Shown here in pieces: positions 53,379-64,000 of a stretch of DNA of 64,000 nt; position 1 is the first letter of the stretch; every line of letters begins with the position of its first letter. Made by a program: the position numbers and the translations under genes. Below the pieces are notes generated by a model. The model was not told where the DNA came from and made no database searches. It saw nothing but the letters and a program-made list of their open reading frames with translations. The stretch lies in contig CBDDCK010000005.1 of NCBI GenBank assembly GCA_965225855.1, forward strand, positions 608,001 through 672,000, read 5' to 3'. Origin of the DNA: Spirochaetia bacterium (GTDB taxonomy: Bacteria > Spirochaetota > Spirochaetia > SP-2023).

Positions 53379-53700
53379 AATTTAGAGCAAATATAAAAAG
53401 AGCGGTTGCGTTGCGTATGATCGTACTAAACATTTACGATTTTTTGCAATTTTTTGAGACTGCCACAGGCTCGTTGGGAAATCCCTAGGTTGCAAATCAA
53501 AAAAGCTAGTAAGGTTTTGGGCAAAAACCTTACTAGCTTTCTTTAAAAACCTTACTAGCTTTTTGAGACCATGCGCTGTTACCATGATATTTTGATACTT
53601 ACACCATCTTATACCATATTGCTGCCGACAATAACCCATATGCCGAAAAACAAAAATTCTAACGGTTAAAATTTAGAGCAAATATAGAAAGAGCAGTTGC
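53358..53700. repeat. 52-bp direct repeat pair (53358-53409 and 53649-53700, 2 mismatches), each copy ending in CRISPR-repeat-like sequence
   Basis: aacaaaaattctaacggttaaaatttagagcaaatata(a/g)aaagagc(g/a)gttgc. Confidence 0.9.
53498..53566. terminator. Hairpin with one left arm and two alternative right arms; possible bidirectional terminator
   Basis: aaagctagtaaggtttt pairs with aaaaccttactagcttt at 53524-53540 or 53546-53562. Confidence 0.6.
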
Positions 53701-53724
53701 ATACCTTTTTCATTTCGGTTTAAT
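53693..53724 (+). CRISPR. Detached degenerate CRISPR repeat
   Basis: gcagttgcatacctttttcatttcggtttaat equals the array repeat lacking the first GTT and one T. Confidence 0.92.
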
Positions 53725-53829
53725 TAGGGCCAGGGCTAGCGAGAATGTGCAGCGTGGTTTGGATAGAGACGCTGGGAAAATTCTTTGGTAAAATTAAAAA
53801 ATAAGAAATTAGGAGTTTTAGGAGTTTTT

Positions 53830-54546
53830 ATGAAAGTTTTTTGGATTGTGAAAATTTTAATGTTTGTGGCGATGATGAGTTACAATCTTTCTGGTGTGTT
53901 GTGGGCTAAGCAGCCGTTGGTGATTGGCGGTACTGTAAATGCTGGCTATACGGGTTTTAGTGGGTCTTGGACTAGCAAAACGAATGGGGTTCTCGATTTT
54001 GAGTGGGACGATGTAACTGGGCTGAGTGTGCCTATTAATGTTTTGGTACATGGGGCTTATGGCTTGAATGATTGGTTTAGCGTTGGCGGTGTGCTTGGGT
54101 TTGGTGTTGGCGTTGATTCTGATTTGGGAACGCCTAAGTATACGGTTAATGGTACTGCTACTGTGCCTTTGGTAGAAAGTGTGGTTGGCGGTTTTAGGAT
54201 TGGGCCTTATTTTCGCTTTGGTTTATGGGGCAAGGATAAAGGCGGGGGTATAGCTGTGGCTGCTTTGTTTATGATTGATTCTTTTCGGGAGCCACAGAGG
54301 TATTCTTTTTATACTGGTAGTGGTTATCTGTATTTGCAGCAAAAAGGCGTTTCGGTGGCTGGTTTGGCTTTAATGAGTGATATTTTTATCAATCGGTATT
54401 TTGGTGTAAATGTTGGTTTGGTTTTTAGTGGTTTGACGAGTGATGGAAACTTTGAAAGGGTGGCTGGCAATAAGTTGGAGCTTAGGGCTGGTGGCGTTGG
54501 CTTTTTGTTGGGGGCTAGTTTTTCTGTGCCGATAAAATTTAAATAA
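53830..54546 (+). CDS. Putative outer-membrane beta-barrel protein lying between the detached repeat and the main array
   Basis: Duplicated AGGAG RBS before ATG 53830 (track starts 53785); signal peptide ending VLWA; Gly/aromatic-rich amphipathic strands; C-terminal GFLLGASFS. Confidence 0.7.
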   Translation: MKVFWIVKILMFVAMMSYNLSGVLWAKQPLVIGGTVNAGYTGFSGSWTSKTNGVLDFEWDDVTGLSVPINVLVHGAYGLNDWFSVGGVLGFGVGVDSDLGTPKYTVNGTATVPLVESVVGGFRIGPYFRFGLWGKDKGGGIAVAALFMIDSFREPQRYSFYTGSGYLYLQQKGVSVAGLALMSDIFINRYFGVNVGLVFSGLTSDGNFERVAGNKLELRAGGVGFLLGASFSVPIKFK

Positions 54547-54643: not shown

Positions 54644-57600
54644 GTTGCAGTTGCATACCTTTTTTCATTTCGGTTTAATAAATTCTTTAGGTCTTTAACT
54701 TTAGCAGTTGTTGCAGTTGCATACCTTTTTTCATTTCGGTTTAATCCGTTGCCACGAAACCTTACCACCAAGGGCGTTGCAGTTGCATACCTTTTTTCAT
54801 TTCGGTTTAATCCTTGGCTTTGATTTTTTGGATATTATTTAGTTGCAGTTGCATACCTTTTTTCATTTCGGTTTAATACCTCTACCCCTATCTCTCCCCC
54901 CACTCCTGTTGCAGTTGCATACCTTTTTTCATTTCGGTTTAATACCTCTACCCCTATCTCTCCCCCCACTCCTGTTGCAGTTGCATACCTTTTTTCATTT
55001 CGGTTTAATCTTATTCTGCTTCTTAAGTCTATTATAGGTGTTGCAGTTGCATACCTTTTTTCATTTCGGTTTAATTCAGACCCAACAGACAAACCATGAC
55101 CGGCAGTTGCAGTTGCATACCTTTTTTCATTTCGGTTTAATGATTTGGATTGTGAATTGTGGTAGGCTATAGTTGCAGTTGCATACCTTTTTTCATTTCG
55201 GTTTAATTGCGCTTAGTCGCAAGGTCAACATCCAGGCGTTGCAGTTGCATACCTTTTTTCATTTCGGTTTAATCCTCTGGAGGCCACAAAGTGTAAGGCA
55301 GTGGTTGCAGTTGCATACCTTTTTTCATTTCGGTTTAATTTACGGGAAATACAAAGATACAATATTTTTGTTGCAGTTGCATACCTTTTTTCATTTCGGT
55401 TTAATATGCCAATAACATCTGGACTATCTCTTTTTGTTGCAGTTGCATACCTTTTTTCATTTCGGTTTAATCCTATAGGGATCACTGGTGGCTCACCTCT
55501 TGTTGCAGTTGCATACCTTTTTTCATTTCGGTTTAATACACATCTTTAATCAAAAATCCTACTTCTTGTTGCAGTTGCATACCTTTTTTCATTTCGGTTT
55601 AATTTCACTGCGACCAAGGGCAATATCCTGTTGGTTGCAGTTGCATACCTTTTTTCATTTCGGTTTAATCTTTGGTGTAATCATAATGTCGAATTTCTGG
55701 TTGCAGTTGCATACCTTTTTTCATTTCGGTTTAATACAAGGTCACGACCGCGACTAGGCTTGTATGTTGCAGTTGCATACCTTTTTTCATTTCGGTTTAA
55801 TTATTCAAGTCACCATACTCACCGGCAGCATGTTGCAGTTGCATACCTTTTTTCATTTCGGTTTAATACAAGGTCACGACCGCGACTAGGCTTGTATGTT
55901 GCAGTTGCATACCTTTTTTCATTTCGGTTTAATTATTCAAGTCACCATACTCACCGGCAGCATGTTGCAGTTGCATACCTTTTTTCATTTCGGTTTAATA
56001 TTAAACGCAACCCCCATTCAGTCGACCTAGTTGCAGTTGCATACCTTTTTTCATTTCGGTTTAATACCATCGCCAGCAACAAGTCTCTTTGCGTGGTTGC
56101 AGTTGCATACCTTTTTTCATTTCGGTTTAATGATTCTACCATTCTCACGCCCTACAAGAGCGTTGCAGTTGCATACCTTTTTTCATTTCGGTTTAATGTG
56201 AGGTATTAACAGCCGATGATATAGTTAGTTGCAGTTGCATACCTTTTTTCATTTCGGTTTAATTTGTCAGCCCAAATTGTTCTTTTGTATTATGTTGCAG
56301 TTGCATACCTTTTTTCATTTCGGTTTAATTATGCGCCCGTGATCTACAATATTATGGTTGTTGCAGTTGCATACCTTTTTTCATTTCGGTTTAATAGAAA
56401 TATCTCTAAGCATATTAAAAATCATGTTGCAGTTGCATACCTTTTTTCATTTCGGTTTAATTCTCTTTCGATACGATGCATCCATTCTTTAGTTGCAGTT
56501 GCATACCTTTTTTCATTTCGGTTTAATAGTAGACATATGCATAACTTTGCCAAGTATGTTGCAGTTGCATACCTTTTTTCATTTCGGTTTAATTTTGTGA
56601 ATGGTCCAGTGTCTGTATTCGTTGTTGCAGTTGCATACCTTTTTTCATTTCGGTTTAATAATTACAACATTCATCGGCAATAAATAAGAGTTGCAGTTGC
56701 ATACCTTTTTTCATTTCGGTTTAATCATTGTACCCTGCGGTGTACGATCAACATAGTTGCAGTTGCATACCTTTTTTCATTTCGGTTTAATTCCAGGAGT
56801 AACCATAACAGAACCCTTAGCGTTGCAGTTGCATACCTTTTTTCATTTCGGTTTAATCATTGTACCCTGCGGTGTACGATCAACATAGTTGCAGTTGCAT
56901 ACCTTTTTTCATTTCGGTTTAATTCCAGGAGTAACCATAACAGAACCCTTAGCGTTGCAGTTGCATACCTTTTTTCATTTCGGTTTAATCATTGTACCCT
57001 GCGGTGTACGATCAACATAGTTGCAGTTGCATACCTTTTTTCATTTCGGTTTAATTCCAGGAGTAACCATAACAGAACCCTTAGCGTTGCAGTTGCATAC
57101 CTTTTTTCATTTCGGTTTAATCATTGTACCCTGCGGTGTACGATCAACATAGTTGCAGTTGCATACCTTTTTTCATTTCGGTTTAATTCCAGGAGTAACC
57201 ATAACAGAACCCTTAGCGTTGCAGTTGCATACCTTTTTTCATTTCGGTTTAATCATTGTACCCTGCGGTGTACGATCAACATAGTTGCAGTTGCATACCT
57301 TTTTTCATTTCGGTTTAATAGTCTTAGGAATGGAGTGGGAAGTCTGAAGGTTGCAGTTGCATACCTTTTTTCATTTCGGTTTAATATTTTTGCCCGTTGT
57401 TTTGCTTTTATTGTGGTTGCAGTTGCATACCTTTTTTCATTTCGGTTTAATAAATTTGCCTGTTTTATATTCTCGTAGTACGTTGCAGTTGCATACCTTT
57501 TTTCATTTCGGTTTAATTGGAAGTCTTGGCTGGTGAAATTGTTAAATGTTGCAGTTGCATACCTTTTTTCATTTCGGTTTAATTGCTTTTTCTTTTTCCT

Positions 57601-60600
57601 GTGTTTTTTCTTGGTTGCAGTTGCATACCTTTTTTCATTTCGGTTTAATTTAGTGAGTGTCTTATTGCCGTCTTGATGGGTTGCAGTTGCATACCTTTTT
57701 TCATTTCGGTTTAATTCGATATTCTAGGCGCTAGTAACGCAGCTGTTGCAGTTGCATACCTTTTTTCATTTCGGTTTAATGCACTGATGCATAAATAGCT
57801 AGGTTTATCGGTTGCAGTTGCATACCTTTTTTCATTTCGGTTTAATTCGATATTCTAGGCGCTAGTAACGCAGCTGTTGCAGTTGCATACCTTTTTTCAT
57901 TTCGGTTTAATGCACTGATGCATAAATAGCTAGGTTTATCGGTTGCAGTTGCATACCTTTTTTCATTTCGGTTTAATTCGATATTCTAGGCGCTAGTAAC
58001 GCAGCTGTTGCAGTTGCATACCTTTTTTCATTTCGGTTTAATCCTCTGGTAATTCTCCAAGGCTTCGATGCAGTTGCAGTTGCATACCTTTTTTCATTTC
58101 GGTTTAATCCTCTGGTAATTCTCCAAGGCTTCGATGCAGTTGCAGTTGCATACCTTTTTTCATTTCGGTTTAATTTTTAGGTCGTGATGGTGAAGAGCTG
58201 GAAGGTTGCAGTTGCATACCTTTTTTCATTTCGGTTTAATTAAACAATATTAAAGGCAAGTTTATCTTGTGTTGCAGTTGCATACCTTTTTTCATTTCGG
58301 TTTAATAAAATCCAAACAAATCATTCAACAAAACAAGTTGCAGTTGCATACCTTTTTTCATTTCGGTTTAATTTCTGGGATATGATCAAGCGTTTCGCTG
58401 GCGTTGCAGTTGCATACCTTTTTTCATTTCGGTTTAATCCGTAGAGACAACATTATGAATAAGCGAAGGTTGCAGTTGCATACCTTTTTTCATTTCGGTT
58501 TAATAGTAGTAACAAGACCAAAATGAACATTTCCGTTGCAGTTGCATACCTTTTTTCATTTCGGTTTAATAGTAAAACCTCCTACGTCTGCGCATAAAAT
58601 GTTGCAGTTGCATACCTTTTTTCATTTCGGTTTAATATAATTATTTTATTCTCCACCCCTATAAAAGTTGCAGTTGCATACCTTTTTTCATTTCGGTTTA
58701 ATTGTGGCAATTGCCCAATTCGGGATATTTTCGTTGCAGTTGCATACCTTTTTTCATTTCGGTTTAATTAGCAGACCGTAAGGACTTACCAAGAGCTTGT
58801 TGCAGTTGCATACCTTTTTTCATTTCGGTTTAATTAAAAAGGTTGTTACGAGCACTGTAGAACAGTTGCAGTTGCATACCTTTTTTCATTTCGGTTTAAT
58901 TTAAGCGTTGCTGGGCTAAAGGTAATGTGTTGCAGTTGCATACCTTTTTTCATTTCGGTTTAATTGTAATTTCTACTGCTGTAGATTAGATAAAGTTGCA
59001 GTTGCATACCTTTTTTCATTTCGGTTTAATTGTAATTTCTACTGCTGTAGATTAGATAAAGTTGCAGTTGCATACCTTTTTTCATTTCGGTTTAATAGCC
59101 TTTACCAAGTTCTTCCACCCAATCATGTTGCAGTTGCATACCTTTTTTCATTTCGGTTTAATTGACCCGTCAACAGGTCAGTTTCGGCCTTAGTTGCAGT
59201 TGCATACCTTTTTTCATTTCGGTTTAATATATAAATGCTAAGTAATACCTCCGAATTAGTTGCAGTTGCATACCTTTTTTCATTTCGGTTTAATAATAGC
59301 AATTGGACAACCGAAAGCAAAGGGTTGCAGTTGCATACCTTTTTTCATTTCGGTTTAATAGCCTTTACCAAGTTCTTCCACCCAATCATGTTGCAGTTGC
59401 ATACCTTTTTTCATTTCGGTTTAATTGACCCGTCAACAGGTCAGTTTCGGCCTTAGTTGCAGTTGCATACCTTTTTTCATTTCGGTTTAATATATAAATG
59501 CTAAGTAATACCTCCGAATTAGTTGCAGTTGCATACCTTTTTTCATTTCGGTTTAATGAAAACCTTGAGTAACATAAACCGGTGTAGGTTGCAGTTGCAT
59601 ACCTTTTTTCATTTCGGTTTAATATAAAAAAGCTCGGCCTGCTTGTTCAGTGTGTTGCAGTTGCATACCTTTTTTCATTTCGGTTTAATAGCCCCAGTCG
59701 TTTTTTATGAATGTTTTGAGTTGCAGTTGCATACCTTTTTTCATTTCGGTTTAATCCCAATACTACCCAAATCTCCCTCATCCTTGTTGCAGTTGCATAC
59801 CTTTTTTCATTTCGGTTTAATCCTAATACCACCCAAATCTCTCTCATTCTTGTTGCAGTTGCATACCTTTTTTCATTTCGGTTTAATCTAGGTCTGTATT
59901 TGATCTATCTCATTCTGGTTGCAGTTGCATACCTTTTTTCATTTCGGTTTAATATTTGTAGATTGTTCTACCATAGAAGATTGGTTGCAGTTGCATACCT
60001 TTTTTCATTTCGGTTTAATAATACCGATTATCTACAGACTGGCAAGCGAGTTGCAGTTGCATACCTTTTTTCATTTCGGTTTAATATTTGTAGATTGTTC
60101 TACCATAGAAGATTGGTTGCAGTTGCATACCTTTTTTCATTTCGGTTTAATAATACCGATTATCTACAGACTGGCAAGCGAGTTGCAGTTGCATACCTTT
60201 TTTCATTTCGGTTTAATATTTGTAGATTGTTCTACCATAGAAGATTGGTTGCAGTTGCATACCTTTTTTCATTTCGGTTTAATAATACCGATTATCTACA
60301 GACTGGCAAGCGAGTTGCAGTTGCATACCTTTTTTCATTTCGGTTTAATAGCCCCAGTCGTTTTTTATGAATGTTTTGAGTTGCAGTTGCATACCTTTTT
60401 TCATTTCGGTTTAATCCCAATACTACCCAAATCTCCCTCATCCTTGTTGCAGTTGCATACCTTTTTTCATTTCGGTTTAATATAATACTTACTCCATTGT
60501 GTAAGGCTGGGGGTTGCAGTTGCATACCTTTTTTCATTTCGGTTTAATGTGTATCATAGTAGGTCTTGAATCTAGGTGGTTGCAGTTGCATACCTTTTTT

Positions 60601-63600
60601 CATTTCGGTTTAATCCAACCAAGCAATCGCAGCAAAACTGCCAGGTTGCAGTTGCATACCTTTTTTCATTTCGGTTTAATAAAATAATCTTTACCCCAGC
60701 AACGAGTCTGGTTGCAGTTGCATACCTTTTTTCATTTCGGTTTAATGCATGGACAAGAGAATGCCGCAGAAACCTTGTTGCAGTTGCATACCTTTTTTCA
60801 TTTCGGTTTAATCCACAGAACAAAAACCTAAGACTTGGTTGGGTTGCAGTTGCATACCTTTTTTCATTTCGGTTTAATAGATATAAGATGCGGATTGCGC
60901 TTAGTCGCGTTGCAGTTGCATACCTTTTTTCATTTCGGTTTAATATTCCTGCCAAAATAGCGCCTATAGCCATAGTTGCAGTTGCATACCTTTTTTCATT
61001 TCGGTTTAATCATAACATGATCGATATGATGGCGCATTTTGTTGCAGTTGCATACCTTTTTTCATTTCGGTTTAATACTCTTAGGAATAGTATGAGAAGT
61101 CTGTAGGTTGCAGTTGCATACCTTTTTTCATTTCGGTTTAATTTTTTCTTCCGTGCTTATTAATATTTTATTGTTGCAGTTGCATACCTTTTTTCATTTC
61201 GGTTTAATATTTATGTTGCATATAACAACCTCCTATAAGTTGCAGTTGCATACCTTTTTTCATTTCGGTTTAATCTTCTCAGCCAATTCACGTTGATGAT
61301 TCTTGTTGCAGTTGCATACCTTTTTTCATTTCGGTTTAATACCATGACCGGCCATCGTGCCCTGCGGTGTGTTGCAGTTGCATACCTTTTTTCATTTCGG
61401 TTTAATCAGACCAAGCAGACCATCGGACTTAATCCTGTTGCAGTTGCATACCTTTTTTCATTTCGGTTTAATAAATAGATTCTGGTCTCTATAGAATTCC
61501 TTGTTGCAGTTGCATACCTTTTTTCATTTCGGTTTAATAATAGCCTGATCCAAAGGAAGATCACCTTCGTTGCAGTTGCATACCTTTTTTCATTTCGGTT
61601 TAATGAGACTACCGGCTTCATATTTGGGCTTTGAGTTGCAGTTGCATACCTTTTTTCATTTCGGTTTAATAAATAGATTCTGGTCTCTATAGAATTCCTT
61701 GTTGCAGTTGCATACCTTTTTTCATTTCGGTTTAATAATAGCCTGATCCAAAGGAAGATCACCTTCGTTGCAGTTGCATACCTTTTTTCATTTCGGTTTA
61801 ATGAGACTACCGGCTTCATATTTGGGCTTTGAGTTGCAGTTGCATACCTTTTTTCATTTCGGTTTAATATTTTCACAAAACCTTCACACTCACTCTCTGT
61901 TGCAGTTGCATACCTTTTTTCATTTCGGTTTAATAGTAAAATCATAAAGGATAAAGTAATATTAGTTGCAGTTGCATACCTTTTTTCATTTCGGTTTAAT
62001 ACCCCAACAACGAACCTGAAGATCGTAAGTGTTGCAGTTGCATACCTTTTTTCATTTCGGTTTAATCCTACAACCCTTCACAACTCACTCATAATCGTTG
62101 CAGTTGCATACCTTTTTTCATTTCGGTTTAATTTATACTGGCGCTAATGTTGGTGAGGATGTGTTGCAGTTGCATACCTTTTTTCATTTCGGTTTAATGA
62201 GACTACCGGATTCATATCTGGAGCTTGCGTTGCAGTTGCATACCTTTTTTCATTTCGGTTTAATAATTCTTAGATAATATCCATTTAGGGCTAAGTTGCA
62301 GTTGCATACCTTTTTTCATTTCGGTTTAATTAGTCATAAACAAACTTTCTAAAGAATATTGTTGCAGTTGCATACCTTTTTTCATTTCGGTTTAATTTTC
62401 TGGTGGTGTGGGCTCGGCAAAATCCAGTTGCAGTTGCATACCTTTTTTCATTTCGGTTTAATAATGATCAGCGCCCAACCAGATAACTTTGTGTTGCAGT
62501 TGCATACCTTTTTTCATTTCGGTTTAATTTTCTGGTGGTGTGGGCTCGGCAAAATCCAGTTGCAGTTGCATACCTTTTTTCATTTCGGTTTAATTTTGCT
62601 TTCTTGAATCTGCTTGTATTTTAGGTTGCAGTTGCATACCTTTTTTCATTTCGGTTTAATTTTGCTTTCTTGAATCTGCTTGTATTTTAGGTTGCAGTTG
62701 CATACCTTTTTTCATTTCGGTTTAATTCGGAAACAGTTATGCCAGTAGCATTGGAAGTTGCAGTTGCATACCTTTTTTCATTTCGGTTTAATACGATCAA
62801 CCTCGGCTTGAATCTGCTTGTATTTTAGGTTGCAGTTGCATACCTTTTTTCATTTCGGTTTAATCTACCCAAATGCCAATAATCATAAGTAGTAGTTGCA
62901 GTTGCATACCTTTTTTCATTTCGGTTTAATTCAGCTAGCAGAGATTCATGATACAGTTCTGTTGCAGTTGCATACCTTTTTTCATTTCGGTTTAATCGAT
63001 CATGTATTAAAGCAATCTTCTCACGGGTTGCAGTTGCATACCTTTTTTCATTTCGGTTTAATAGGTCACTAACGCGGCGCTGTACAGAAGTGTTGCAGTT
63101 GCATACCTTTTTTCATTTCGGTTTAATAATCCAAACCATCGTGGTAGATGGCGTAGCGTTGCAGTTGCATACCTTTTTTCATTTCGGTTTAATATGAAGG
63201 TTTATTTTGTGCCTTATGGGCTTGTTGCAGTTGCATACCTTTTTTCATTTCGGTTTAATCTCATTTCTCTCATCCTTCACAACCTTCCAGTTGCAGTTGC
63301 ATACCTTTTTTCATTTCGGTTTAATATCAAAAATAGTTTTTTGAAGAGATTTCTGGTTGCAGTTGCATACCTTTTTTCATTTCGGTTTAATTCGCTACCA
63401 ACAGAAAGACCATGACCGGCAGTTGCAGTTGCATACCTTTTTTCATTTCGGTTTAATAAAGGCTAGATTTTCTAAGGTTGGGCCTTTGTTGCAGTTGCAT
63501 ACCTTTTTTCATTTCGGTTTAATAAATTTTTATCAAAATAATGGCCACCTTGCGTTGCAGTTGCATACCTTTTTTCATTTCGGTTTAATAGGAAACTTCT

Positions 63601-64000
63601 TTCCTTGACAAGGCATATTGTTGCAGTTGCATACCTTTTTTCATTTCGGTTTAATACTTAGATTTTTAAGTGCTTCTACAGGTGTGTTGCAGTTGCATAC
63701 CTTTTTTCATTTCGGTTTAATCTATTGATTATGGGCCTGTTGGGCTCTTGGGTTGCAGTTGCATACCTTTTTTCATTTCGGTTTAATTAAAAAATCGTCA
63801 ATGTCGCTACTGTGTCGGTTGCAGTTGCATACCTTTTTTCATTTCGGTTTAATCTTAAATTTGTAACTTTTTTATAATTTTTGGTTGCAGTTGCATACCT
63901 TTTTTCATTTCGGTTTAATCTGCTTAATTTTTTAGCTTGGAGACTTGTGTTGCAGTTGCATACCTTTTTTCATTTCGGTTTAATTTTATCAACATCTCCA
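54644..64000 (+). CRISPR. Large CRISPR array, type II-C-like, about 142 repeats; runs off the window end
   Basis: Invariant 36-nt repeat GTTGCAGTTGCATACCTTTTTTCATTTCGGTTTAAT; spacers mostly 30 nt (range 28-36); 66-bp period; resembles the Neisseria II-C repeat GTTGTAGCTCCCTTTCTCATTTCGCAGTGCTACAAT. Subtype and strand are inferred; no cas genes in window. Confidence 0.98.

Follow-up and report, generated by a model that had tools for sequence, protein, structure and literature searches.

The spacers of a long type II-C CRISPR array in a spirochaete genome very probably bear witness to recurrent infections with single-stranded DNA (ssDNA) phages that resemble Sukshmavirinae and form a diverse population. 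The array, here called array A, lies in a stretch of 64,000 nucleotides from a Spirochaetia bacterium (GenBank assembly GCA_965225855.1, contig CBDDCK010000005.1, positions 608,001 to 672,000 of the forward strand), which we refer to as the window, and at least 21 of its 171 unique spacers match microvirus proteins. The analysis adds a new spirochaete host lineage and provides much firmer evidence for a phage-host link that had already been predicted.

Array A consists of 202 identical 36-nt repeats between window positions 54644 and 67944 and thus extends beyond the end of the window. It contains 201 spacers, of which 192 are 30 nt long and 30 are duplicates. Beyond the array the minus strand encodes cas2, cas1 and a cas9 of 1180 aa (TIGR01573, TIGR03639 and TIGR01865). 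Neither csn2 nor cas4 is present beside the array and no extra open reading frame (ORF) lies between cas9, cas1 and cas2, the arrangement by which the locus is classed as II-C. The CRISPR RNAs (crRNAs) of array A are most likely read on the plus strand, because the tracrRNA-like (trans-activating crRNA-like) anti-repeat upstream of cas9 is predicted to form the more stable duplex with the plus-strand repeat (-39.9 versus -29.9 kcal/mol) and because the end with the lower coordinates carries a degenerate repeat.

54644..64000 in the window, continuing to window-equivalent position 67944, plus strand: type II-C CRISPR array A, followed outside the window by cas2, cas1 and cas9 on the minus strand
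53690..53724, plus strand: degenerate terminal repeat, separated from array A by one ORF, probably an old end of the array

The Neisseria-type II-C system has the layout cas9-cas1-cas2 with 36-nt repeats and 30-nt spacers. Array A shares this gene order and both lengths, and likewise faces cas2 and has the tracrRNA-like anti-repeat upstream of cas9. It differs from the Neisseria type in that it is very long and coexists with a second Cas9 locus and with a locus for Cas12a and a Cas12a3-like protein, both without cas1.

To this host genome (G000) belong 510 unique spacers from three arrays (171 from A, 53 from B and 286 from C), and every stop-free frame of these was scored. In an ungapped BLOSUM comparison with microvirus ORFs 20 of the 510 spacers reached a score of at least 40; reversed and shuffled controls yielded none, and a decoy of the same size made of ORFs from other viral contigs yielded two. 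After enlargement of the reference to 150 loci the number was 25, again with none in the control. Microvirus profiles at a threshold of 16 bits matched 37 of the 510 spacers, where 2.3 were expected. These were distributed over all three arrays (A 21/171, B 6/53, C 10/286) and over the proteins VP1 (24), the replication initiator VP4 (6), the pilot protein VP2 (5) and VP5 (2); the reference VP1 sequences match PF02305, the major capsid protein. The matching spacers of array A span spacer 7 to spacer 194, and between window positions 55076 and 63421 the threshold was reached by 13 of 99 spacers. Altogether the spacers cover 162 of 506 VP1 columns. Since variable regions escape recognition, the microvirus count is a lower bound. 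When window positions 56001-64000 were compared with GenBank phages by blastn, weak matches were obtained (E 0.7-9), four of them to microviruses.

The same analysis was applied to 377 unique spacers from arrays close to cas genes of four relatives (G001-G004). Here 40 spacers reached 16 bits, with 0.7 expected: 30/172 in G001 and 10/136 in G002, both of the same genus as the host, 0/55 in G003 and 0/14 in G004. No spacer was common to the host and these relatives at E<5e-4. The informative spacers of array A are the following (window coordinates).

55076..55105, minus strand: A7, VP1 peptide AGHGLSVGS, 21.6 bits
55472..55501, minus strand: A13, VP1 peptide RGEPPVIPI, 17.4 bits
55802..55831, minus strand: A18, duplicated at 55934, peptide AAGEYGDLN of the replication initiator VP4, 22.0 bits
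56000..56029, minus strand: A21, VP4 peptide RSTEWGLRL, 18.3 bits
56726..56755, minus strand: A32, present in five copies as far as 57283, overlapping A102 with its VP1 peptide, 11.2 bits, weak by itself
57320..57349, minus strand: A41, variant partner of A98, best position at the VP1 LQTS motif, weak by itself
58505..58534, minus strand: A59, VP4 peptide GNVHFGLVTT, 18.3 bits
58965..58994, plus strand: A66 (duplicate at 59031), 18/19 nt shared with the stem of the host Cas12a repeat, flanks foreign
59888..59917, plus strand: A80, VP1 peptide RSVFDLSHS, 26.1 bits, 25/26 nt to PQ006351, the only sense-strand match of array A
60681..60710, minus strand: A92, VP1 peptide QTRCWGKDYF, 26.6 bits
61077..61106, minus strand: A98, variant partner of A41, weak by itself
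61341..61370, minus strand: A102, VP1 peptide TPQGTMAGHG, 32.5 bits, same peptide in locus L217
61473..61502, minus strand: A104 (duplicate at 61671), VP1 peptide KEFYRDQNLF, 24.4 bits, 23/24 nt to PQ006458
62865..62894, minus strand: A125, VP1 peptide TTYDYWHLG, 29.0 bits, same peptide in locus L316
63063..63091, minus strand: A128, VP2 pilot protein peptide TSVQRRVSD, 25.2 bits with the Sukshmavirinae-clade profile and 11.0 with the other
63326..63355, minus strand: A132, VP2 peptide QKSLQKTIFD, 18.6 bits
63392..63421, minus strand: A133, strain variant of A7, 21.6 bits
63985..64000 (to 64014), minus strand: A142, stem of the Cas12a repeat (3' half), then 10 nt equal to the start of host cas12a

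The original prediction had read eleven spacers as fragments of microvirus capsid and replication proteins. All its peptides were recovered at their positions as reverse-complement translations, although two need a repeat base for the last residue, and the overlaps by which it had tiled the capsid sequence are real (16/18 nt between the spacers at 56726 and 61341, and 12/13 nt between 61341 and those at 55076 and 63392). Six of the eleven are significant singly (55076, 63392, 61341, 61473, 55472 and 55802; null tail <=0.001). The spacers at 56726, 57320 and 61077 are not (tail about 0.1), but they overlap other spacers or lie beside a conserved VP1 motif. For the spacers at 57650 (HQDGNKTLTK, null tail 0.81) and 60945 (MAIGAILAG, null tail 0.24) a microviral origin found no support. 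The proposed infecting agent held as far as microviruses are concerned; a single reconstructed genome did not, and the candidate of one reconstructed virus was ruled out by strain variants among overlapping spacers. Because the differences sit at third positions, overlapping spacers derive from different virus strains. Among 13 hand-picked pairs of variant spacers, 11 keep their best protein match on the reverse strand, and the changes are mostly synonymous. These synonymous differences between homologous spacers indicate that the targets form a diverse population and not one genome.

To place the targeted viruses, VP1 trees were built. In a tree of 139 sequences ten references listed as Shukshmavirinae (another spelling of Sukshmavirinae) in Table S1 of Kirchberger et al. 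2022 (PMC9239249) fall within a clade of 73, and in a second tree the Sukshmavirinae clade has a support of 0.998. A profile containing Sukshmavirinae scores higher for 32 of 41 spacers of the host and for 36 of 42 spacers of its relatives. By these comparisons the targets likely favour the Sukshmavirinae clade. As the reference set was enriched for this clade, the assignment is likely and not proven. Judged from the available sequences, the targeted viruses themselves are unsampled.

The host genome comprises five contigs and is 94% complete and 0.7% contaminated. Array A, its cas genes, lepA, flgK and flaA are all located on one contig of 2.03 Mb. Three FlaA genes exceed the Pfam cut-off. 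The closest LepA sequences among the 80 loci kept belong to Spirochaetota (62-68% identity), and in a FastTree analysis of 77 rows the host LepA clusters with three Spirochaetota rows (SH 97). Marker gene analysis thus bore out the spirochaete host of the original prediction: by one marker gene plus FlaA, it is a member of the Spirochaetota, placed to phylum level. The genome contains just one detected cas1. Array B (56 repeats) is located beside a second cas9 and a cas2, without cas1 (G000:C5:898877-906679, L293); its duplex energies (-43.9 versus -46.2) do not decide its orientation, which we take to be plus from the repeat layout. Two more repeats near array B, at 896071, are separated from it by a transposase-like and methyltransferase-like insert. 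Array C (323 repeats) lies beside cas12a and a Cas12a3-like gene (G000:C5:1065917-1074272, L292), with cas1, cas2 and cas4 absent alongside. The Cas12a encoded there is long (1568 aa) and is followed by the Cas12a3-like protein of 1202 aa, which matches PDB entries 21we and 9hlx with E 8e-53; G002 carries a similar pair. G001 has a repeat and a cas9 resembling those of array A.

In the two II-C arrays of the host, 26 of 27 matching crRNAs are antisense to viral genes and would pair with the virion or mRNA strand. For array A alone the ratio is 20/21 (p=2e-5, with variant pairs not independent), for the Cas12a array C 4/10. The bias may be caused by PAM (protospacer adjacent motif) asymmetry, by an acquisition bias during rolling-circle replication or by selection for guides that also cut single strands. 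Single-strand cleavage is a property of II-C Cas9. We propose that Cas1-Cas2 of the locus acquired fragments of 30 nt from the double-stranded replicative form throughout the history of the array, as the spread of matches along it would suggest, and that plus-strand crRNAs guide Cas9 to this form. Viral escape through synonymous change would then have driven the acquisition of new spacers. The host itself would have no resident copy of such a virus, and relatives of the virus would integrate at dif-like sites via the host XerCD, by analogy with enterobacterial gokushoviruses.

Viruses of the Sukshmavirinae type were found integrated, with flanking repeats of 17-29 bp, in contigs of Treponema succinifaciens and in two more spirochaete genomes, which is a new observation. 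The survey covered 34 metagenome loci and GTDB samples of 401 phylum and 401 class genomes. In three of the metagenome loci a radical SAM gene and mfd enclose a complete element, and the direct repeats on either side of it measure 21, 17 and 23 bp. The two flanking proteins that were looked up belong to a 90% cluster under the name Treponema succinifaciens; one of them has exactly the sequence of WP_273466834.

L392, L395, L396 and L388, between the radical SAM gene and mfd: T. succinifaciens microvirus prophages with 17-23 bp attachment (att) repeats

Locus L388 shows an end-to-start junction, as expected from an excised circle or a tandem copy. In the GTDB samples VP1 was detected in 3/401 phylum genomes and 2/401 class genomes. 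The elements of G152 and G234 are located mid-contig with flanking repeats of 18 and 29 bp; the latter is presumably dif-like. Spacer B52 matches VP1 of the G494 element in 27/28 nt and spacer C29 VP1 of the G152 prophage in 23/24 nt. The gene order VP1-ORF-VP2-VP4-ORF is found in G152, G234 and G494 and, in permuted form, in the prophages of T. succinifaciens. Every element tested that is located in a spirochaete groups with the Sukshmavirinae references. Searches of the host genome with VP1 protein queries gave no match, as did PF02305 in the host and 60 relatives, for which the positive control was silent too; no dif-like site was found in the host genome with the G234 repeat as query. The G494 element contains an accessory DUF261 gene (PF03196, L431:6797-7261) between VP2 and VP4, belonging to what we take to be a Borrelia family; it is matched by no spacer and occurs in no other of the microvirus loci. 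A further microvirus outside the Sukshmavirinae clade is integrated mid-contig (384 kb) at L403:4998-9730.

Several observations weigh against infection of this host by Sukshmavirinae-like phages as read from array A. No source is assigned to 150 of its 171 spacers, and a contig with the protospacers was not found: exact and motif scans gave no matches, and another scan two tailed-phage matches only. Of the 307 VP1 residues that the spacers cover, the closest among 270 homologues has 198 in common with them (about 64% at most). The 73-member clade of the 139-sequence tree has a support of 0.71, a third VP1 tree places a Gokushovirinae C genome inside the clade, and the enrichment of the reference set bears on the profile scores. 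The strand bias is not general, as the II-C arrays of G001 show 12/18 and 4/6 and a third array 0/6 (with orientation assumed from the repeat). From 17 flanks of overlapping spacers no PAM consensus emerged, and acquisition by this Cas9 system is therefore not shown directly. Among the integrated elements, that of G494 interrupts a uvrA-like gene on a contig of 1.14 Mb and lacks an att repeat, that of G498 lies at a contig end, and that of G300 is a separate 5.7-kb contig, a circle.

We consider it unlikely that the viruses of this host are members of a different gokushovirus-like subfamily or of several. The other profile gives the higher score for nine of 41 spacers, for instance A92, A194 and B23, the spacer-specific motifs are missing from all 270 VP1 homologues, and support at the clade base is low. 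Set against this, the VP2 and VP5 spacers prefer the Sukshmavirinae-clade profiles by 10-15 bits (the other clade had no VP5 profile), and the grouping of the spirochaete-located elements with the Sukshmavirinae references argues for the same clade. It is distinctly improbable that the spacers, though microviral, stem through DNA uptake from viruses that infect neighbouring bacteria and not this host, or that the array was transferred from another host. Array A has taken up chromosomal DNA as well (6/171 spacers match the own genome with no mismatch) and no resident provirus was found in this genome, but different microvirus spacers occur in three of its arrays of two Cas types and in five arrays of two other genomes, the matches are spread over the full array, and viruses of this clade sit integrated in the chromosomes of spirochaetes. 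That array A is mis-binned or chimeric and not spirochaetal at all is hardly credible: although the host is known from an assembly alone, the array shares its contig with lepA, flgK and flaA, and a similar repeat and cas9 occur in G001.

Three spacers of array A agree with the 3' stem in the Cas12a repeat of the host, A200 in 19/19 nt, A66 in 18/19 nt and A142 in its 3' 14 nt with one change, and their flanks are unlike array C. Their scores of 19, 16 and 11, where none of 2688 shuffles exceeded 10 (expected 3e-7), exclude chance. By stem-directed blastn the exact stem was found, among the matches listed, in at least three GenBank microviruses (MK496734, MK496751 and MG945527), intergenic and in gene sense. 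In MK496734, a member of the Shukshmavirinae in Table S1, the stem is followed by about 20 nt and then by a predicted terminator; A66 matches this intergenic element in 25/27 nt, including 7 nt beyond the stem. A tentative and rather doubtful proposal is that the Sukshmavirinae are resident, partly temperate microviruses of spirochaetes, some of which carry, within a genome of about 5 kb, a solitary Cas12a repeat RNA that would soak up Cas12a and Cas12a3, and that the host aims A66, A142 and A200 at this decoy. After length matching the share of microvirus spacers in array C is about a third of that in array A (10/286 versus 18/171, p=0.004). The lower share fits a decoy, but it has other explanations because the V-A locus has no cas1.

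A source on a tailed phage or another element with a solitary Cas12a repeat, or in a stem-like coding stretch, is moderately probable for these three spacers. Large viral contigs commonly carry solitary stems; of at least 120 such loci 80 were checked, and none lay on a contig with a VP1 or VP4 match. The stem is likewise present in none of 197 microvirus loci that were gathered independently of it. A200 is identical in 25/25 nt to solitary-stem elements in L435 and L446, which were found by our own pattern and are thus not independent. The three spacers also share one open frame with synonymous-looking changes. On the other hand, these changes lie in the loop and flanks of a stem whose match is not due to chance, the shared peptide occurs in no microvirus and in no long ORF (15 matches, all non-microvirus), none of the spacers has a tailed phage as its assigned source, and the similarity of A66 to a Sukshmavirinae genome continues past the stem. 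Separately, Leptospira LE1-like phages (L094:1501, KF114880, and two more records) contain a solitary intergenic Cas12a stem with a terminator-like hairpin.

The RNA anti-CRISPRs Racr (PMC10651486) and Cracr (bioRxiv 10.1101/2024.10.29.618823) of type V-A have a solitary Cas12a stem, a short spacer-like segment and a terminator, as does MK496734; its type of carrier differs in being an ssDNA microvirus of 4.6-6.4 kb. The searched text of these two papers does not mention microviruses. A Cracr is characterized by at least nine PAM-proximal matches to the cas12a promoter beside TTTV. The tail of A142 equals 10 nt of the host cas12a start, one of five such sites in the genome, and the preceding four bases are not TTTV; a Cracr reading of A142 was rejected for the absence of this motif before the putative target.

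The Sukshmavirinae were defined by Tikhe and Husseneder 2018 (PMC5759034). A link to spirochaetes is not new as such, since Tables S1 and S4 of Kirchberger et al. 2022 (PMC9239249) give 'CRISPR predicts Spirochaetes' for Shukshmavirinae in eight rows, with Brachyspira, and associate Family 9 with Treponema in two rows. The same source deems spirochaete links based on metagenome-assembled genomes error-prone. For lemur microviruses Treponema hosts were predicted by iPHoP (PMC11281440), and the accessible text of PMC12291355, PMC8530359 and bioRxiv 2024.01.22.576691 holds nothing further on hosts. The viruses analysed here share with Sukshmavirinae (Family 3) the VP1, VP2, VP4 and VP5 motifs and the CRISPR-predicted spirochaete hosts, and the integrated relatives share their gene order. 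Unlike the hosts in PMC9239249, ours belongs to another lineage of spirochaetes, has a nearly complete genome and carries dozens of spacers. Integrated forms flanked by att repeats are not reported in the accessible parts of PMC9239249 and PMC5759034, and neither spirochaete microvirus prophages nor a microviral Racr were reported in the literature searched, subscription papers lying outside its coverage. The Enterogokushovirus prophages (Kirchberger and Ochman 2020, PMC7062461), which integrate at dif through XerCD, likewise have no integrase and are flanked by short direct repeats. The elements described here differ from them in subfamily and host phylum; XerCD integration would apply to them by analogy only, and the array A host has no provirus.

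For most microviruses the host phylum is unknown, and spacers in three near-complete genomes together with att-flanked prophages give an abundant subfamily of gut and aquatic habitats a host. As T. succinifaciens is a culturable gut commensal, a spirochaete microvirus becomes directly testable, and a tiny integrating ssDNA phage might serve as a genetic tool for spirochaetes. Elements with a Cas12a stem in the genomes of microviruses offer a cheap way to test RNA anti-CRISPRs in ssDNA phages; if the decoy is real, it would be the first RNA anti-CRISPR in an ssDNA phage, combined with a countermove across CRISPR systems.

The surroundings of array A show some further features. A 253-aa ORF (window 53785-54546), situated between array A and its degenerate terminal repeat, is predicted to encode an outer-membrane beta-barrel-like protein (Atlas 0.97) and has no match in Pfam; Rfam gave no match in the window. 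A second, degenerate copy of the last repeat together with a leader-like hairpin (G000:C5:675944-676620) separates array A from cas2. Within the array, tandem duplications of spacer pairs occur at window positions 56726-57283 and 59954-60313, with up to five copies, and the 36-nt spacer at 62793-62828, whose last 22 nt equal the spacer at 62595, is probably a recombinant of two spacers. The six spacers identical to the own genome, five of which match within long ORFs, are located as follows.

Window positions 54812, 56132, 62931 and 63128, and spacers 147 and 162 beyond the window: self-matching spacers of array A

Since the host-matching spacers share no PAM, the self-targets seem to be tolerated. 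Multi-copy families of the host are matched by the spacer at 63128 (114 places) and by spacer 276 of array C (84 places).

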